Both the position numbers and the translations under genes were made by a program. From the NCBI GenBank assembly GCA_013151235.1, contig JAADIO010000006.1, positions 1-61,869 of the forward strand: a DNA stretch of 61,869 nt, read 5' to 3'. This stretch comes from Deltaproteobacteria bacterium (lineage in GTDB: Bacteria > CG2-30-53-67). The notes beneath the pieces are model-generated. The model saw only the letters and a program-made list of their open reading frames with translations. It was not told where the DNA came from and ran no database searches. Shown one piece after another: positions 9,816 through 20,229 of this stretch; positions within the stretch are counted from its first letter, which is position 1, and each line of letters starts with the position of its first letter.

Positions 9816-10169
9816 TCATCCATCCTTTCGGGCGGAATGATCGGGAGCAGACGATTCGGGTTTGGATTTTTCATGGAAGGCATTCGTCAGGAGGAGCCCG
9901 GTAAAAACAAACTTCGAACGTTCTTCGCCTTTGACCTGCCGGTAAAACTCACAATCGGTGCACATCTTGATATTGTCCACCGAAGTCTCGGTCAGATCTT
10001 CGTTGCAGTCCGTACCCGGCACCACCCAGCAGGCTCGACCGGCATTCTTCCCGTCGTGCACTCCGTTGAGCCGTTCCGCCTCCGCAGCAGGACAGAGCCC
10101 CAATTCTCCGACCTTCTTCCCGCCGGGTTCACGACCGCACTGGAAATATTCCCAACAGTTCTGTTTCAT
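9816..10169 (-). CDS. Two-CW-domain Cys-rich protein
   Basis: NCWEYFQCGRE...CPA...AGRACWVVPGTDC...CTDCEFY. Confidence 0.75.
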   Translation of the reverse strand: MKQNCWEYFQCGREPGGKKVGELGLCPAAEAERLNGVHDGKNAGRACWVVPGTDCNEDLTETSVDNIKMCTDCEFYRQVKGEERSKFVFTGLLLTNAFHEKSKPESSAPDHSARKDG

Positions 10170-10317
10170 CGGCACGTTTGACCATCAACTCTATGCAGTC
10201 CAATCACAACACGTTTTCCACTTTACCCGCAAATAATCCTGCTGTAAAGTCCGGGACGATAGATTACGGCAATCTCCGAAAAAAAAAGAGGCGGCATTCA
10301 GGGCAACAGGGAGAGAT

Positions 10318-11520: not shown

Positions 11521-13071
11521 ATGAATCAGACACTTATTTCGCATCCACTGTTTCTGCGGAAACACTCGGTCGGGCTGTGGGCCAGAGAGCATCTCTTTAT
11601 TCTGAATTACCTCGGTGCCCTGCTGACCGTCATGGGGCTCCTCCTCTGCCTGGCCCTGATCCCCTACGAATGGTACCATGAAGGGACAAGGGCGGGTGTG
11701 CCGGTCAGCGCCTTCGCCCTGCCGGCGGCACTCTCCATCCTCATCGGGTTGATCGCCCAGAAAGGGATTTCCACACGTGCGCCCACCGTTCGGGATGCGA
11801 TGATCATCACCGGTCTCGGCTGGCTTGTCATCAGCCTCGTCAGCGCCGTTCCTTTCATGATCGGTCTCCACGAATCCTTCATTAACGCCTTTTTCGAGTC
11901 GGTCAGCGGCCTGACGACGACGGGGATTACCGTTTTGGAAGGACTCGATACCATGCCGAAAAGCATTCTCCTGTGGCGCTCCTTTATCCAGTGGATCGGA
12001 GGTCTGGGGATCCTGACCTTTTTCCTCGCCGTCGGATTCCGGGGAGGTTCCGCCGCAGCGAGCCTCTTCGGCGCCGAAGGGCACAAAATCAGCACATCCC
12101 GGCCCGTTCCGGGGATCTTCAATACCGTTAAAATCCTCTGGGGAATCTACATCGGGTTTACCATCGCTTCCTTTTTCTGTTATTTCTTCGGCGGGATGAA
12201 CGGCTTCGACGCCCTGAACCACTGCCTGACAACCATCTCCACAGGAGGATTCTCAACACACGATGCAAGCATTGCATATTACGGAGCCCATCACTATGCC
12301 CACGCGCGATTCTTAGAGTACGCGGCAACCTTCTTTATGCTTGCCGGCGGGATTAACTTTCTCGTCCATTACCAGGTTTTCACCGGTAACATACGGGCTC
12401 TCTACAGGAATTTCGAGATGCGCTGGTTCTGGACCCTGACCTTGGGAGCCGCGGGGCTGATCCTGATCGACCACTTCCGGCAATTTCCCCTCACGGGCAA
12501 TCCGCTGCACCAGATGGAAGGCGCATTTCGGGCCAGCCTTTTTCAGACGGCATCGATGATCTCCAGCACCGGCTATTCAACTCTCGATATCAACAACCCC
12601 TTCTTCCCGGCCCTGAGCAAACAGATCTTCCTCATTCTCATGCTCATCGGCGGCTGCGTCGGGTCGACGGCGGGGGGAATCAAAGTCCTTCGAATCGGAA
12701 TCTTAAGCCGGATGTTTAAAACGCAGCTTTCCCGGATCGCCGGCCCTTCCCGCTCCATCTCTCCGGTCGTCGTCGCGGGGAAGACCATCCCGGACAGCGA
12801 GATCCAGCGGATTGCCGCCTTGGCGTGTGCCTGGATGATTCTGATCGCCGTCGGAGCGGGGATCACCGCCTCCTTTTCCGATCTGAACGCCTGGCAGTCA
12901 CTGTCGGGGATGGCTTCGGCCGTGGGGAACATGGGGCCTTTCTATTTTTCCGTACACAAGATGGCTTCGTTGAGCGGAATCATCAAGATCACCTATATCG
13001 TCGGCATGCTGGCCGGACGGCTGGAGATTCTGCCGATCGCCGTGTTGTTTTATCGTTCCACCTGGAGATAG
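11521..13071 (+). CDS. trkH: Trk system K+ uptake membrane protein TrkH
   Basis: FESVSGLTTTG, QWIGGLG, ISTGGFS, GGCVGSTAGGIK and AGRLEI. Confidence 0.95.
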   Translation: MNQTLISHPLFLRKHSVGLWAREHLFILNYLGALLTVMGLLLCLALIPYEWYHEGTRAGVPVSAFALPAALSILIGLIAQKGISTRAPTVRDAMIITGLGWLVISLVSAVPFMIGLHESFINAFFESVSGLTTTGITVLEGLDTMPKSILLWRSFIQWIGGLGILTFFLAVGFRGGSAAASLFGAEGHKISTSRPVPGIFNTVKILWGIYIGFTIASFFCYFFGGMNGFDALNHCLTTISTGGFSTHDASIAYYGAHHYAHARFLEYAATFFMLAGGINFLVHYQVFTGNIRALYRNFEMRWFWTLTLGAAGLILIDHFRQFPLTGNPLHQMEGAFRASLFQTASMISSTGYSTLDINNPFFPALSKQIFLILMLIGGCVGSTAGGIKVLRIGILSRMFKTQLSRIAGPSRSISPVVVAGKTIPDSEIQRIAALACAWMILIAVGAGITASFSDLNAWQSLSGMASAVGNMGPFYFSVHKMASLSGIIKITYIVGMLAGRLEILPIAVLFYRSTWR

Positions 13072-13081
13072 GAGAGACATT

Positions 13082-13804
13082 ATGTACATTGTCATCGGAG
13101 GAGGCGGGATTGCCGGAGCTGCCCTGGCCGGAGAACTGGTAAACCGGAAGCATGATGTGGTCGTCATTGACATTAACAAGGAGACCTGCGAGATGGCCTT
13201 TGCCCAAACCGGGGCCGTGACCATCATCGGCAAAGCTACGGAGATCGGAACACTGCAAGAGGCAGGGATCGAGAAGGCCGACGTAGCGATTTCCGCTCTC
13301 TACCGGGACGAAGACAATCTGACCTTCGCCCTGCTGGCACACAGCTTCAACGTACCGAATATTTACGTCAAGATGCGAAACCCGGCCTACCGGGATGCTT
13401 ACCGCGTCGCCGGCGTCACCGTCATCTGCGACATTGTTGGGATGTTCAAGAACAAGGTGATCGCCGAGTTGGAAAATCCCGACCTCAAGGTGATCACCCC
13501 CCTCGAAGAGAACGGGACAAAGCTGGTCATGTTCCGTCTCCCCGGGAGTTGGCCCTCGGAGGGGAGACTGATCTATGAGTTGGCCAAGGAGCCGGCCTTC
13601 TGCGGAGATTGTCTCTTTACCGGGATTCTCAATGAGAAACACAAGGGAATTATCGTCCCACACGGGAATGACCGTGTCTATCCCGGGGACCGAATCTTCG
13701 TGGTCGCAGGACCGAAAAGTCTGAAGGCAATCACAAAATATCTGGCCGGAATCCGGAAGAAAAAGCTGCCCCCTCCTCTCCGAACCACCCCTTTGCACGT
13801 CTGA
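13082..13804 (+). CDS. trkA: Trk system RCK regulatory subunit TrkA
   Basis: IVIGGGGIAG Rossmann motif, EAGIEKAD, C-terminal TrkA-C; adjacent to trkH. Confidence 0.9.
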   Translation: MYIVIGGGGIAGAALAGELVNRKHDVVVIDINKETCEMAFAQTGAVTIIGKATEIGTLQEAGIEKADVAISALYRDEDNLTFALLAHSFNVPNIYVKMRNPAYRDAYRVAGVTVICDIVGMFKNKVIAELENPDLKVITPLEENGTKLVMFRLPGSWPSEGRLIYELAKEPAFCGDCLFTGILNEKHKGIIVPHGNDRVYPGDRIFVVAGPKSLKAITKYLAGIRKKKLPPPLRTTPLHV

Positions 13805-13974: not shown

Positions 13975-15528
13975 ATGGAAAATATCGACCAGAATTCCCC
14001 GGCGGTGGGGATCGACAGATTAGCCGGACAGGCGGCGGAACAGGGATGCCGCTGGGTCCGATTCAGCGAGGACATCGTTGCCGACCTTGAGATCGTTACC
14101 CCTCTCGACCTGAAAAAGCTGCAAGAGGAAGGGTGGTTCCCATGGACCATCTCCGGGAAGACGGCCACGGTGATTACCTGCACTCCCTCCTCAGAAATGG
14201 ACCGTCTCTGCCGGAAGGTCCTCGGCGTGGATCATATCGAATTCGTGCTGGCCGACCGCGATAATCTGACCCGGATCATCGAACACAATCAGGACATCAA
14301 CCATCGGTTCTCCCCGGATGCAGGGAGGACGCCGCTTGCCCGTGTCCGGACCTATCTTGCCAATCGCCGTTCCATGCTTTCCCTCTGCCGCACACTGCTG
14401 GCCAAGAGTCGAACCCATCTGGCCGTGGTCCGAACCGGATGCGCATTCATCGCCATCGCCATCGTTTTCCTCCGCATCTTTACAAAGCTTCCGGGCAACG
14501 CCCTTCTCCCATTTCTGATCCTGGAGGTCCCCCTTCTCTCCTTCGGAATTTACATGATCCTTGCCCACATGCTGAAGTATATGCCGGCCCGGAAGGTAAA
14601 TGACCTTCTCCCTTCCTGCAAAGCAACCACCCCCACGGGAGGGAGTACGGTACTCCAGGTTTCGGATGAAGAGAAATCTCCGACCTTCCAACGCTCGGAT
14701 GTCGTCCCGGAAGCGGATACCCTCCGGCGGGACTGGACCCGGCTTTCGCCGGTGATGCGTCGCCGTTTCCTGGCATCCGACCGGACCGATTTCGCCGAAG
14801 AACGGACCACGCTTGCCTGCTTCAGGACCTGGATGGCGAACGTCCGTACCTGGCTGGCCTTCGTACGCACCGGCGGCGCCTTCGTCGGTCTCGGTTCCGG
14901 GCTGATACGGGCCTTCCCGAACAGTTCCTGGTTCTACTTTGACCTGAGCCTGGCCGGGATCGGCTTCCTGATGATCTGCGAGGGACTCTTCTGGTATTTC
15001 CGGGGCTACCATTCCGGCAAGATCAGCTTCAAATCGGTTCTCCGAATGAATGCCGGGGAAACGATCTGGGACACCTTCTTTCCGCACCGCCATGACGATT
15101 CTCCACCGAACCGTGTGGGGCTGCCTCTCGAAAAAGGGCAGGCCCCCGGAATCTGGGCAACCACCGGGCTTGCGCTTGAACGGACCGTGCTGGCGGACAG
15201 GCGCAATACCATGGCCCGGCTGCGTACAGTAATGGCACGGATGAGAACCGGTTACTCCTTCATTCGGACCGGCCGGACTTTTTTCTTTATCGGTGCTACA
15301 TTTGCCGTCTATTTTCACAAGAGCAACTTCTTCTGGTACAGCTATGAGGCTGTCATGATGCTGGGCGGTCTTCTGCTGATCGTCGACGGTCTCCTCTGGG
15401 TCCTCCCTGCGAGCAGGGTCCGCAAACAGTTGCCCTACTGCACCGCGGATGTGAATATCAACATACCGGACTACGGCATTCCCTGCTGTGACTGGAAGAA
15501 GATCGAGCTTCGTCATGATACACACTAA
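13975..15528 (+). CDS. Membrane protein: GspE/PilB N-terminal-like subdomain plus three DUF202-like (Arg-heptad helix + 2 TM) repeats
   Basis: N-terminal KLQEEGWFP...VITCTP...IEFVLA. Three RTxLAxxRTxxAxxRTxLAxxRTG-type repeats, each followed by two hydrophobic helices. Confidence 0.75.
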   Translation: MENIDQNSPAVGIDRLAGQAAEQGCRWVRFSEDIVADLEIVTPLDLKKLQEEGWFPWTISGKTATVITCTPSSEMDRLCRKVLGVDHIEFVLADRDNLTRIIEHNQDINHRFSPDAGRTPLARVRTYLANRRSMLSLCRTLLAKSRTHLAVVRTGCAFIAIAIVFLRIFTKLPGNALLPFLILEVPLLSFGIYMILAHMLKYMPARKVNDLLPSCKATTPTGGSTVLQVSDEEKSPTFQRSDVVPEADTLRRDWTRLSPVMRRRFLASDRTDFAEERTTLACFRTWMANVRTWLAFVRTGGAFVGLGSGLIRAFPNSSWFYFDLSLAGIGFLMICEGLFWYFRGYHSGKISFKSVLRMNAGETIWDTFFPHRHDDSPPNRVGLPLEKGQAPGIWATTGLALERTVLADRRNTMARLRTVMARMRTGYSFIRTGRTFFFIGATFAVYFHKSNFFWYSYEAVMMLGGLLLIVDGLLWVLPASRVRKQLPYCTADVNINIPDYGIPCCDWKKIELRHDTH

Positions 15529-16747
15529 TTCACAAAGCCCGTTCCAGGGTCTGGTCAAACACGGGATTCTGGATGCGAAAACCCTGGCCGAGGCACTCGG
15601 GGTCGCCGAACGTCATGGCCTGCCGCCGGCCGAGATCCTTCTACGGGAGTACGACCTTCCCCGCGCAGCGCTCCAGCAGGCCCTTGCCGATCATTACCAC
15701 TGCGGGGTCCTTGAATACGATGAACGGCTGCCGATTCCCCCCGAGCTCCTGTCCGGGCTGGAGACTGAAAAACTGCGGGAGGAAGGATGGTTTCCGGTCA
15801 TCAAAAAGGCCGACGGTACGGTAGTCGTCGCTTGCACGAATCCCGCCGACCCCGCCCTTCCAGCAGAGGTGCAGGAAATCCTCGGAACCGGGCCATTTGA
15901 ATTCAAGGTCTGCCTCCCGGACGACATCCGATGGTTCACTGAAGACTTTCTCCATGCAAAACCGGGCAAACTGGTGGGTACGGAGCGAACCGGCCTGGCC
16001 TATTGGCGTAATAACATGGCCCAGTGGCGGACTGCTCTCGCCTGCTACAGGACGGACATGGCCCGTGCCCGCACCGCCCTGGCGATCATGCGTGCCGGAC
16101 TGGGACTGATCACCATTTCCTTTGCTCTCACCCGGGCACACTACCTCGCACTCCCCGAAGCAGCGACGATTCTTATTCTGGTCCTGGGTTGCGTCCTGGC
16201 CGTCGGCGCCGTACTCCCTTATCTCGAAGTCCGCCGCAGCCGCCTCCGTCCCCCCGGCGACACGACGCTGGTCGAGGTCACCGCCACGGAAGTAAGCTTT
16301 CTGAAGAACTATCTCAACCCGGAGAAATCCCCCGTCAAAGCACCGCACCGGGAGAAAATGCTGGCCCGGATCAGTGACCGGCTTCTGGAGTACTGCACCC
16401 TGCTCTATCCGCCCCCCGGAAGTCTGGAGCGGACACACCTTGCTCGGGAGCGAAACGTTCTGGCCGCCCAACGGACCATCGCCGCCTGCAACCGGACCAT
16501 ATACGCCCGGGCACGAACCGGGTTGGCATTCATCCGGACCGGGATCTCCTTCATCAGCATCGGGATCGGTTTAATCAAATACTTCGGCCCCGGCAGAAAC
16601 ACGATCTTTGACGCCCTGCTCATCCTGATCGGCCTTCTGCTGACGATCGACGGTGCCCGCTGGTATCGTCCGGCACACCGGTCGCAAACCGTTTTCTCGG
16701 AACTCGGCAGCCGATTCCGTCTCGAAAATTTTGTCAGCCGGTCATAG
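15515..16747 (+). CDS. Membrane protein: degenerate MshEN/GspE-N domain plus two DUF202-like repeats (paralog of the upstream gene)
   Basis: GLVKHGIL...LAEAL...EILL, KLREEGWFP...VACTNP. Repeats ERTGLAYWRNNMAQWRTALACYRTDMARARTALAIMRAG and ERTHLARERNVLAAQRTIAACNRTIYARARTGLAFIRTG. The start overlaps the previous gene. Confidence 0.75.
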   Translation: MIHTNSQSPFQGLVKHGILDAKTLAEALGVAERHGLPPAEILLREYDLPRAALQQALADHYHCGVLEYDERLPIPPELLSGLETEKLREEGWFPVIKKADGTVVVACTNPADPALPAEVQEILGTGPFEFKVCLPDDIRWFTEDFLHAKPGKLVGTERTGLAYWRNNMAQWRTALACYRTDMARARTALAIMRAGLGLITISFALTRAHYLALPEAATILILVLGCVLAVGAVLPYLEVRRSRLRPPGDTTLVEVTATEVSFLKNYLNPEKSPVKAPHREKMLARISDRLLEYCTLLYPPPGSLERTHLARERNVLAAQRTIAACNRTIYARARTGLAFIRTGISFISIGIGLIKYFGPGRNTIFDALLILIGLLLTIDGARWYRPAHRSQTVFSELGSRFRLENFVSRS

Positions 16748-17244: not shown

Positions 17245-20229
17245 ATGATAAGATCGCTAAAAGCATCATTGATGATACTGATGATCCTCATGACCTGGAA
17301 CCCTGCATCCGCCGAAGAAATTCCTTTGTACCGATTGAACGTGAGATTACTGCCCGGCATCCACACCATCGAGGGGCACGGCATCATCTCCGTGACCAGT
17401 GGGAACCGGTTCGAGATCGACCCGGCTCCTTTTTCCATGACCGGGTGGCGGCTGGACGGCAAGAAGATTGATTCCTTCGAAGCAGTCAACCGGAGACTCG
17501 CAGCGGATCCCGGCCCCCACGTCCTGGAATTCGATTACCGAAAAGTTTTCTCCGGTGAGGACGGGGAAAACGCTCTTAACCCGAAAGGGGTGATACTCCT
17601 CAGTCGGTGGTACCCGACAATTTCTCTCCGGAGCCGCTACAGGTTGACGGTAACCCTGCCCCGCTCCATGACCGCCGTCTCGGAAACGGAGTCGGTAAAA
17701 GAGAGCCTCGGCGAGAAGACCCGGACCGTCCGTTTCGTTTTCCCCCACGCCATCGGGGGGATTACCCTCGCTGCCGGTCCCTACAAGATCCGTCAAGAGC
17801 GGATCCACGGCATTACCTTGCGGGTTCTCTTCTTCGCGGAGGACGACACACTCGCCGGGCGCTACCTCGATCGGGCACGCCGTTACATCGAACTCTACGA
17901 GAAGATGCTCGGTCCATTTCCCTATCCGATTTTCTCCATCGTCGAAAACCGTTACCCCACCGGCTCTTCATTCCCGACCTACACCCTTCTCGGCGCTGCG
18001 GTCATCCGACTTCCCTTCATCCTCCAGACCTCCCTCGGACACGAGATCCTGCATCAGTGGTTCGGCAACAGCCTCTTCGTGAACAACGCTGAAGGAAACT
18101 GGTCCGAAGGATTAACGACCTACCTTGCCGATCACTGGTATAAGGCACAGGCAGGAAAGGGGGCGGCCTACCGGAAAAAGATCCTGACCGACTACCGCAA
18201 CTATGTGACCAGGAAGAATGATTTTCCTCTCAAGGATTTCCGGGAACGCACGAACCGGGCCACGCAGGCCATAGGCTACGGGAAGGGGGCCATGTTCTTT
18301 CACATGCTCCGCAGAAAGGTCGGGGACGAGAAGTTCTTTGCCGGCCTGAAGGAGACGATTGCCGCGGAGAAATTCAAACGGCTCTTATGGCATGACCTCG
18401 AAAAACATTTTTCCACCGCCGCCGGAGAAGATCTTGCCCCCTTCTTCACACAGTGGCTCGAACGGAAGGGGGTTCCGGAGTTCCGGGTGAAAAACCCGAG
18501 GCTCCTTTACCGCAACGGGGCCTACCGGCTGAGTTTCGACCTCCGCCAGGAAGGAAAACCCTGGCGGTTCAAACTTCCCGTAACGGTCGTCACACCGGAC
18601 GGCCGCAAGACTTACACATTCCCTGTCGAAGGTGCGACAGAACATTGGTCGCATACCTTCACCGAGAAACCTTCCCGGCTCATCATCGATCCGAACTACG
18701 ACGTCATGCGGAGCCTGACGAAGGAGGAGACCCCGCAGGTTCTCTCCGGATTCCTCGGACGGCCGGGCTCCCTGGTCATTCTTCCCGATGAAGATTCCGA
18801 TCTCTACAGGGATGCTGCAGACCTCTTCCGGCGAAAGGGCTTCAAGGTCATTCAGGCCAAAGAGGTCACCGAAGAAGATCTCAGGAACCACTCCGCCTTG
18901 ATCTTCTCAAGGAAAAACCGGATCTATCAGCGCCTCTTCGCCGGTACGTCACTCCCCCGAGGCGACCTGGTCCTGAAAGTGACGGCCAATCCGCTGAACA
19001 CGGAATTGACCGACGTCCTTGCAGGAGGAGATCGGCCCGGTTCCAGCCTCCCCGCCCTGAGAAAGATCTTTCACTACGGGAACGACGCCGAACTGGTCTT
19101 CCGCGACGGGCACGTCATCTCGCGTAAGGCCGGTACGGCGGAACAGGGGATCGTTGTCGACCTGGACCTTCATGTAGAGGCCGTTGAGCCGAAGAAGGAC
19201 CTCGACCTGGATGCCGTCGTCACAAAAATCCGGGATCGGCGTCTTATCTTCATCGGAGAATCGCATACCGCATACGCCCATCATGTCGTGCAGCGTGAGA
19301 TCATCCGGCGCATCTTTAAGGCCCGGAGGAAACTCATCATCGGCATGGAGATGTTTCAACGTCCCTACCAGGAATATCTCAATCAGTATATTCAGGGCAA
19401 AATCGACGAAGCGGAGATGCTCCGGAAAACGGAATACTTTTCCCGCTGGAAATATGAATATAACCTCTACCGGGACATCCTGCAGTATGCCCGGGCGAAG
19501 AAGATTCCCGTCATCGCTCTCAACCTGCGGGCGGAAATCATCCGCAAAGTCTCCCGCAAAGGGATCTCTTCTCTGACGCCCGATGAGGCCGAGGCCCTGC
19601 CGCGGGATATCGACATGACCAACCAGACCTACCGGCAATACATGCAGGAGATCTTCAAGGAACACCCCGAGGGAAAGAGTCAGGCTGCGGGCAAAACGGG
19701 GGCGCTTTTTGCTGATTTCTTCCAGTCCCAGGTCCTCTGGGATGAGACCATGGCCCACACGATTGCAGAAACCCTGCGAAAACACCCCGATACGCCGATG
19801 GTCGTCCTTGCCGGAAATGGTCACCTGCAATATTCCTGGGGGATCCCCGACCGGGTGCACCGGATCACCGGCATACGGGGAACGGTGATTTTAAACGATA
19901 TCAATGACACCATTCGAAGAGACCTGGCCGACTACATACTTTTTCCCGATCCGATGAAAACGCCGGAGAGTCCGAAACTGATGGTCATGCTGTCAAAAAA
20001 CAAAAACGGCATCGAAGTCGTAAAGATGCTGCGAAACGGTCCGGCCGACAAGGGCGGCATGCGGGAGGGAGATCTTATCTTAAAGATCGGAAAAGAAAAA
20101 ATCCGGAAGATCGACGATGTTAAAATCGCGCTCCTCGGCAAGAAAAAGGGAGAAACCATTAAGGTAAAGATCCGGAGGAAACATCTATTCCTGGGAAGGA
20201 AGGAGACCCAACTGAAGGTCCATCTTTAA
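17245..20229 (+). CDS. Secreted M1-family metallopeptidase fused to a ChaN-like domain and a PDZ domain
   Basis: Signal peptide; HEILHQWFGN...NWSEGLTTY (HExxH-18-E) and YGKGAMFF; ChaN-like IFIGESH, GMEMFQR, QVLWDETMA, LAGNGH; PDZ GPADKGGMREGDLI. Confidence 0.88.
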   Translation: MIRSLKASLMILMILMTWNPASAEEIPLYRLNVRLLPGIHTIEGHGIISVTSGNRFEIDPAPFSMTGWRLDGKKIDSFEAVNRRLAADPGPHVLEFDYRKVFSGEDGENALNPKGVILLSRWYPTISLRSRYRLTVTLPRSMTAVSETESVKESLGEKTRTVRFVFPHAIGGITLAAGPYKIRQERIHGITLRVLFFAEDDTLAGRYLDRARRYIELYEKMLGPFPYPIFSIVENRYPTGSSFPTYTLLGAAVIRLPFILQTSLGHEILHQWFGNSLFVNNAEGNWSEGLTTYLADHWYKAQAGKGAAYRKKILTDYRNYVTRKNDFPLKDFRERTNRATQAIGYGKGAMFFHMLRRKVGDEKFFAGLKETIAAEKFKRLLWHDLEKHFSTAAGEDLAPFFTQWLERKGVPEFRVKNPRLLYRNGAYRLSFDLRQEGKPWRFKLPVTVVTPDGRKTYTFPVEGATEHWSHTFTEKPSRLIIDPNYDVMRSLTKEETPQVLSGFLGRPGSLVILPDEDSDLYRDAADLFRRKGFKVIQAKEVTEEDLRNHSALIFSRKNRIYQRLFAGTSLPRGDLVLKVTANPLNTELTDVLAGGDRPGSSLPALRKIFHYGNDAELVFRDGHVISRKAGTAEQGIVVDLDLHVEAVEPKKDLDLDAVVTKIRDRRLIFIGESHTAYAHHVVQREIIRRIFKARRKLIIGMEMFQRPYQEYLNQYIQGKIDEAEMLRKTEYFSRWKYEYNLYRDILQYARAKKIPVIALNLRAEIIRKVSRKGISSLTPDEAEALPRDIDMTNQTYRQYMQEIFKEHPEGKSQAAGKTGALFADFFQSQVLWDETMAHTIAETLRKHPDTPMVVLAGNGHLQYSWGIPDRVHRITGIRGTVILNDINDTIRRDLADYILFPDPMKTPESPKLMVMLSKNKNGIEVVKMLRNGPADKGGMREGDLILKIGKEKIRKIDDVKIALLGKKKGETIKVKIRRKHLFLGRKETQLKVHL

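Follow-up and report, generated by a model that had tools for sequence, protein, structure and literature searches.

What might two overlapping bacterial genes make when each of them joins an MshEN domain to tandem copies of a DUF202-like membrane hairpin, and when the two together provide exactly five long helices with an arginine at every seventh residue? The question is raised by genes A and B, which lie in the 61,869-nucleotide stretch of contig JAADIO010000006.1 (Deltaproteobacteria bacterium, assembly GCA_013151235.1) that we analyzed as a whole and refer to as the window. To judge from the predicted complex, A and B probably form a five-helix heterodimer. Its function would be, at about an even chance, to conduct small multivalent oxyanions under the control of a receiver, and these oxyanions would most likely be those of sulfur such as thiosulfate, sulfite, and sulfate.

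An earlier description made from the DNA letters only (the sequence-only reading) had regarded A and B as overlapping paralogs that share KL(Q/R)EEGWFP in their N-terminal domains, contain three plus two arginine-heptad repeats with kinship to DUF202, and carry a GspE-type N-terminal domain with no ATPase or polymerase attached; on all of these points, our analysis agrees with it. The genes overlap by 14 nt when B starts at ATG and by 41 nt when it starts at GTG, both forms of the motif (KLQEEGWFP and KLREEGWFP) are present in the pair, and the two proteins are 29% identical over 353 columns (E = 1e-30). Both passed the Pfam cut-offs for MshEN (29.5 bits for A and 42.1 bits for B; cut-off, 23.1) and for DUF202 (PF02656; 38.3 and 40.3 bits; gathering cut-off, 23.4). 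Neither protein showed an ATPase or polymerase domain with Pfam or NCBIfam; furthermore, Pfam gave no match to an SPX or TTM/VTC domain, and no NCBIfam model matched either protein above its cut-off. The arginine ladders are five in all, three in A and two in B, and when the residues of the pair were shuffled, a ladder of length at least five arose even once in only 72 of 20,000 shuffles. In the alignments of 120 homologs each of A and B, Arg occupies all but one of the 30 ladder positions (29) in 98-100% of the sequences, and the thirtieth is an invariant Thr. The DNA itself was scanned as well, but no sigma-70 promoter site was obtained at the scan threshold and no terminator was found after the genes.

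The anatomy was then refined in one respect by the AlphaFold2 models of the single chains (mean predicted local distance difference test score, pLDDT, of 83.8 for A and 80.5 for B). Each ladder had been supposed to be followed by two transmembrane (TM) helices; a long ladder helix is indeed modeled in every unit, but it is continuous with the first TM helix (H118-169, H259-313, and H398-446 in A; H156-207 and H304-357 in B), and only one return helix comes after it. Such a two-helix unit would bring the chain back to the same side of the membrane, so that tandem copies stay parallel, and we infer that the three-helix unit of the yeast polyphosphate complex VTC could not be repeated in tandem in this way. 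When the predicted models were compared with solved folds by VIA-align, the MshEN subdomain of A resembled XpsE-N (2d28; Z 10.8, root-mean-square deviation (rmsd) 4.5, 104 aligned residues) and the MshEN domain of B resembled MshE (5htl; Z 14.0, rmsd 3.5, 139 aligned residues). For the membrane parts of these single-chain models, the matches listed were generic helical bundles and did not include VTC. The Foldseek match to the VTC membrane region that had been predicted also did not appear with the single-chain models, to which that search was confined; the model of A gave no Foldseek match at E <= 0.001, and neither phmmer with A nor the profile of B detected a VTC chain in the PDB. As for the MshEN caps, a role as receptors of cyclic di-GMP (c-di-GMP) was rejected, since the 24-residue c-di-GMP motif, in a relaxed form of that given in the portion of PMC5013675 on which we drew, is missing from all 120 homologs of A and all 120 of B.

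In terms of the number of units, the pair is highly regular. All of the 120 aligned A homologs have three units and all of the 120 aligned B homologs have two. Of 79 GTDB loci, taken from the best 80 of 246 confirmed matches, 72 show the 3+2 arrangement and three show 3+3+2; in three others a contig end interrupts the locus, and in one B is split. A divergent alignment detected at least 238 metagenome loci, and in the best 80 of these, 56 are 3+2 and 24 are contig-cut, three of the latter being frameshifted as well. The two sets may have some organisms in common. In whole-genome searches, which are free of locus-sampling bias, A was found in 6 of 401 genomes of one phylum, all six with B, and in 43 of 301 genomes of another, again all with B (that of G597 was seen only after the region had been fetched); no B without A was seen in the genomes examined. 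Both the conserved total of five and the obligate pairing, as anticipated by the sequence-only reading, are therefore supported, with three 3+3+2 loci, G698, and P0248 as the exceptions to the total. No longer form in which A and B are fused (743-2120 aa) was found among 8000 candidates, which is weak evidence. Within the phylum of the host itself, the pair is patchily distributed, and none of the 11 other genomes had it.

The predicted A-B complex also speaks for the proposed 1:1 heterodimer with five Arg-lined helices, as its score was 0.79 and that of the best of three controls was 0.00; the mark used for a complex is reached by 116 of 157 solved pairs and by 2 of 215 mismatched pairs. The runs agreed in at least 87% of the contacts, and the partner pLDDT was at least 69. 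While the model thus supports the binding of A to B and does not show it, the pattern of the interface is more telling than the score. Namely, A1 is predicted to pack on B2 and A3 on B1, with the A2 helix left out, and these contacts would close a ring in the order of A1-A2-A3-B1-B2. One helix face at the interface uses the heptad positions 0, +3, +4, and +6, and the other uses 0, +1, +4, and +5. Positions 0 (Arg) and +4 (Ala) are common to both faces and, on a helical-wheel reading, would therefore point toward the axis of the ring, i.e., its lumen. Past the last Arg of the ladders, positions +4, +7, and +11 are mostly Ser, Thr, Ala, or Gly, the exceptions being +11 of A1 and +7 of A3; a further Arg is placed at +14, at the outer end of the helix, in 97% of A1, 95% of A2, and 55% of B1.

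Features of the A-B locus (positions are those of the window)
Feature	Position	Strand	Remarks
Gene A	13975-15528	+	517 aa; short N-terminal helix, MshEN C-subdomain, three Arg-ladder DUF202-like hairpins, conserved C-terminal tail
Gene B	15515-16747 (ATG, 410 aa) or 15488-16747 (GTG, 419 aa)	+	Full two-subdomain MshEN fold, two Arg-ladder hairpins
A, MshEN (T2SSE_N) alpha/beta subdomain, residues 33-107	14071-14295	+	Pfam PF05157, 29.5 bits; without c-di-GMP motif
Unit A1: ladder R118-R153 into TM1, return helix	14326-14607	+	From the model; packs on B2 in the predicted complex
Unit A2: ladder R263-R298, TM1, return helix	14761-15009	+	Outside the predicted A-B interface except residues 255-262, in keeping with a middle position among the helices of A
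Unit A3: ladder (T396)R403-R431, TM1, return helix	15160-15429	+	Packs on B1 in the predicted complex
B, MshEN domain, residues 6-146	15530-15952	+	Fold kept, c-di-GMP motif lost
Unit B1: ladder R158-R193, TM1, return helix	15986-16243	+	From the AlphaFold2 model and the predicted complex
Unit B2: ladder R306-R341, TM1, return helix	16430-16702	+	From the AlphaFold2 model and the predicted complex
Stand-alone receiver, 126 aa	16768-17148	+	Pfam Response_reg; orthologous to the receiver found after A and B at other loci

On this model, A and B would join 1:1 in the inner membrane, where their five long helices would form a pseudo-pentamer of DUF202 hairpins from two chains, without a third TM helix (TM3). 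The axis-facing Arg at every seventh residue would give six stacked basic rings in a cytoplasmic tube of about 6 nm, and the small polar residues might carry the lumen on through the membrane. Given that about five positive charges per heptad have to be neutralized, the lumen would most likely hold multivalent anions in single file; by the helix geometry, the five Arg in each 10.5 Å of helix would be balanced by about two dianions per layer or by a linear polyanion.

The same hairpin is also found in proteins with other numbers of units. Single-unit relatives were present in 13 of the 401 genomes at 14 loci (L227-L240), their ladders extend over 12-29 heptads when one miss is allowed (e.g., L238:5928-6860 and L239:2394-3347, both on the minus strand), and cognate kinase, PPDK-like, or TauE-type genes accompany them at 10 of the 14 loci; these proteins might assemble into a homo-pentamer with a length of as much as about 30 nm. 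A single chain of 476 aa, P0350, which comes from a single 2-kb contig, has five DUF202 hairpin units and is possibly a one-gene version of the five-fold ring. No relatives of P0350 were found in viral contigs, and its Atlas matches all scored under 0.9. In a tree of the units (72 columns), which took in 8 of the 14 single-unit proteins, all five A/B units cluster together (96/95) within the single-unit proteins, and P0350, a single sequence, has its five units in a separate group (99/98) with long branches, which suggests two separate expansions to five units. Fusions of the unit were noticed as well: namely, with a receiver (P0293 and also L227), with a receiver and PPDK-like domains (P0385), and with a sodium/bile-acid symporter domain (P0384). 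At three loci, furthermore, an ordinary single DUF202 gene lies about 6 kb downstream of the pair (L040:17056-17454, L048:17010-17462, and L069:9225-9635).

How would such a ring be controlled? Of the 92 loci with enough sequence, 86 have the cognate HAMP kinase downstream of B, 85 have the receiver, and 74 have a PPDK-like gene; on the upstream side of the pair, related loci frequently have TauE, PF09608, and Usp genes. Neither this conserved context nor the single-unit and five-unit relatives figured in the sequence-only reading. Of the usual set, A, B, and the receiver are all that the window contains. Its receiver matches the profile of the cognate receivers with 152 bits (the next best in the genome, 110), and the acidic pair is altered in it, with DGQ versus DDE in 53 of 57 cognate receivers. 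The host genome is 99.25% complete, and the cognate kinase was not found in it or in G016 (best 19.7 and 32.3 bits, as compared with 250-280 for true orthologs). Also not found were the PPDK-like enzyme in the host (best 55 bits, partial), the C-terminal domain of this enzyme in the host or G016, and a PF09608 gene in the host; the kinase, the PPDK-like enzyme, and PF09608 were likewise not found in the genome of the closest locus, L005, for which no completeness figure was given. When the host is compared with the latter genome, A has a ratio of nonsynonymous to synonymous substitution rates (dN/dS) of 0.085, B one of 0.11, and the receiver one of 0.25, values which indicate that A and B are under purifying selection between two genomes with no detected kinase. 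The stand-alone receiver would probably dock on the MshEN caps or tails and gate the ring, and in most hosts a dedicated kinase would act upstream of it. In all of this, the sequence anatomy, the co-inheritance, the conservation, and the gene context are shown by the sequences, the heterodimer, its ring order, and the orientation of the Arg come from the predicted model, and an open pore, its cargo, and the docking and gating by the receiver are inferred.

Alternatively, the arginine core might bind anions with no conduction and control the neighboring kinase or receiver as a co-sensor. Transporter-like co-sensors are known from other two-component systems, UhpC and DctA being examples. The frequency of the kinase, the receiver, and the PPDK-like gene after B would be consistent with this role, and so would the single-unit relatives, in which the unit gene directly precedes an orthologous kinase and receiver (3 of 14 loci: L230, L238, and L239) or is fused to the receiver. 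Nonetheless, we consider a co-sensor rather unlikely: a four-helix periplasmic sensor is already built into the kinase itself (4HB_MCP_1 in 7 of 9), and A and B are kept with a dN/dS near 0.1 where the kinase was not found. The persistence of A and B without the kinase is our main argument for an effector over a co-sensor.

If A and B are an effector in the form of a conduit, its hosts may point to sulfur oxyanions as the cargo. One of the carriers, Hydrosulfovibrio ferrireducens CB1MN (locus L025), is in culture. The dsrA gene was found in 50 of the 51 carrier genomes (47 over the cut-off), and the host has two dsrA-type loci (C26:30506-32817 and C27:29657-31934), both of which are over the TIGR02064 cut-off. 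In the sample of 301 genomes, the pair was present in 42 of 163 dsrA-positive and 1 of 138 dsrA-negative genomes; the TauE partner PF09608 was found in 47 of the 51 carriers. In Desulfovibrio, furthermore, mutants of a cluster with TauE, kinase, receiver, and PPDK-like genes were nitrate-resistant, and a leaky thiosulfate transporter was proposed there, according to the part of PMC4001038 that deals with this cluster.

By analogy with VTC, polyphosphate or another linear polyanion might also be threaded across the membrane. The module and the count are those of the VTC pore, five Arg per heptad suit a linear polyanion, and the single-unit ladders are longer than a small-ion filter would appear to need. 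This nevertheless has a low probability in our view. Profile searches in which the positive controls matched detected no PPK1, PPK2, or VTC domain in the host genome; among the carriers, PPK1 was found in 4, PPK2 in 2 (one a weak partial match), and a VTC domain over the cut-off in none; and no polymerase family occurs among the 39 annotated neighbors of the pair. Polyphosphate as the likely cargo, to which the analogy with VTC in the sequence-only reading would lead, is therefore not supported by these genomes.

It would also be surprising if the pair were an export or import pore for pyrophosphate, a nucleotide, or a phosphorylated product of the PPDK-like enzyme, in which synthesis would be coupled to transport as in Vtc4. 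The PPDK-like genes (PPDK_N plus PEP-utilizers, about 860 aa) are indeed close, within 5.5 kb downstream in the 74 loci, and P0385 joins the unit, receiver, and PPDK-like domains in one protein; in the host, however, A and B are intact while the enzyme was not found. We noticed that these enzymes have a conserved C-terminal domain of about 300 aa (e.g., L024:12527-15100 and paralogs), for which the Atlas gave no named family and of which G012 has five copies. Finally, it is hardly probable that the ladders form only an anion-stabilised stalk or scaffold with no membrane path, or that the assembly is not five-fold, as might be suggested by the generic helical bundles in the fold searches, the very variable length of the single-unit ladders, and the existence of 3+3+2 loci, given that the conserved residues along one and the same helix face stay small and polar across the membrane, that two separate expansions end at five units, and that the predicted interface closes a ring.

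A connection with potassium or salt stress had been suggested for testing too, and the TrkH-TrkA potassium uptake pair does lie directly upstream of A in the window (11521-13804, plus strand), but this role was rejected because TrkH/TrkA homologs occur at 0 of 159 related loci and the adjacency is confined to this window. Two other genes of the window may be mentioned here, namely a 994-aa fusion of Peptidase_M1, ChaN (Tiki-superfamily haem-binding), and PDZ at 17245-20229 (plus strand) and a small Cys-rich ORF of 119 aa with no Pfam match at 9816-10175 (minus strand).

Several points weigh against the five-helix conduit for sulfur oxyanions. The predicted complex was used as score and contacts, which do not give the width or continuity of the pore, and the score may draw on likeness to solved VTC or pilus-ATPase domains. 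The A3-B1 contacts are offset by seven residues from those of B2-A1, and this may reflect either a staggered ring with a seam or an error of the model. Two tandem A genes accompany one B in L070, L075, L080, and G698, for which alternative A subunits or another stoichiometry are candidate explanations, and P0248 is a singleton A-type protein with two units. The sequence link to Vtc1 is weak (E 0.27-0.52). With regard to the cargo, 121 of the 163 dsrA-positive genomes in the sample have no pair, and the link with dsrA is confounded by kinship; the argument from TauE is borrowed from relatives, since the host has no PF09608; and the comparison with the Desulfovibrio cluster is one of gene kinds, by which neither A/B content nor orthology is established.

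We can also think of a bolder version, although it is doubtful. DUF202 might be a general pentameric anion pore module that sulfur-respiring bacteria have lengthened into an arginine-cored "anion wire" that would measure about 6 nm in the present pair and as much as about 30 nm in the single-unit relatives; a linear polyanion other than the polyphosphate made by kinases, such as a chain of polythionate or polysulfide or whatever the PPDK-like enzyme makes, would then be threaded along a helical Arg staircase under the control of the receiver, and five single-unit chains (1x5), the 3+2 pair, and five units in one chain would be three solutions to one ring.

In the literature that we searched, most subscription papers being outside it, no report was found on this pair or on MshEN together with DUF202. 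Nor did that literature give a bacterial function for DUF202/YidH, the only structurally solved use that we saw being the eukaryotic VTC pore. The pair provides a concrete and testable bacterial model, in which two chains would supply five helices and six Arg rings, the regulator is named, and the hosts belong to the sulfur cycle. An arginine core in a pentameric coiled coil would in itself surprise structural biologists. The window in particular is a naturally pared-down case with A, B, and the receiver alone, in which the putative ring is parted from the kinase and the PPDK-like enzyme. If the pair does conduct sulfur oxyanions, it would be an added route in sulfate reducers, disproportionators, and cable bacteria.

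In comparison with known systems, the MshEN domains of A and B have the same fold as those of MshE, PilB, PilF, and XpsE (T2SSE_N, PF05157; 5htl and 2d28) but no ATPase attached, and they differ from the MshEN receptors in having no c-di-GMP motif, as is the case with the non-binding XpsE domain. Both proteins pass the cut-off of the DUF202/YidH family (PF02656) and yet differ from it by the tandem units, the long Arg ladders, the fusion to MshEN, and the obligate pairing. The Desulfovibrio cluster DVU0251-DVU0245 shares with the related loci a TauE permease, a HAMP kinase, a stand-alone receiver, a PPDK-like protein, and a sulfate-reducing host; its gene table in PMC4001038, however, shows no DUF202 or MshEN and includes a periplasmic binding protein and a phosphatase. 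A-B also resembles the VTC ring (Vtc1 x3, Vtc3, and Vtc4; PDB 7ytj, 8i6v, and 9umg), which likewise has a DUF202-type TM1 with basic residues seven apart. In the portions of the VTC reports that describe the pore, five TM1 helices surround a pseudo-symmetric axis, and K24 and R31 of Vtc1 line the lumen (PMC9911596; 10.1101/2023.01.27.525886); through a single-unit DUF202 protein as a bridge, weak as it is (E 0.27-0.52), the A/B ladder would fall in register with these two residues. In contrast to VTC as described there, A-B would be built from two chains rather than five, with two helices rather than three in each unit, and would have six basic rings where VTC has two. By its module, count, and charge, A-B is like the VTC pore and is yet not a VTC: TM3, the TTM polymerase, and SPX are absent, most hosts have no polyphosphate kinases, and the places of the polymerase and SPX are taken by the MshEN caps and a two-component system.

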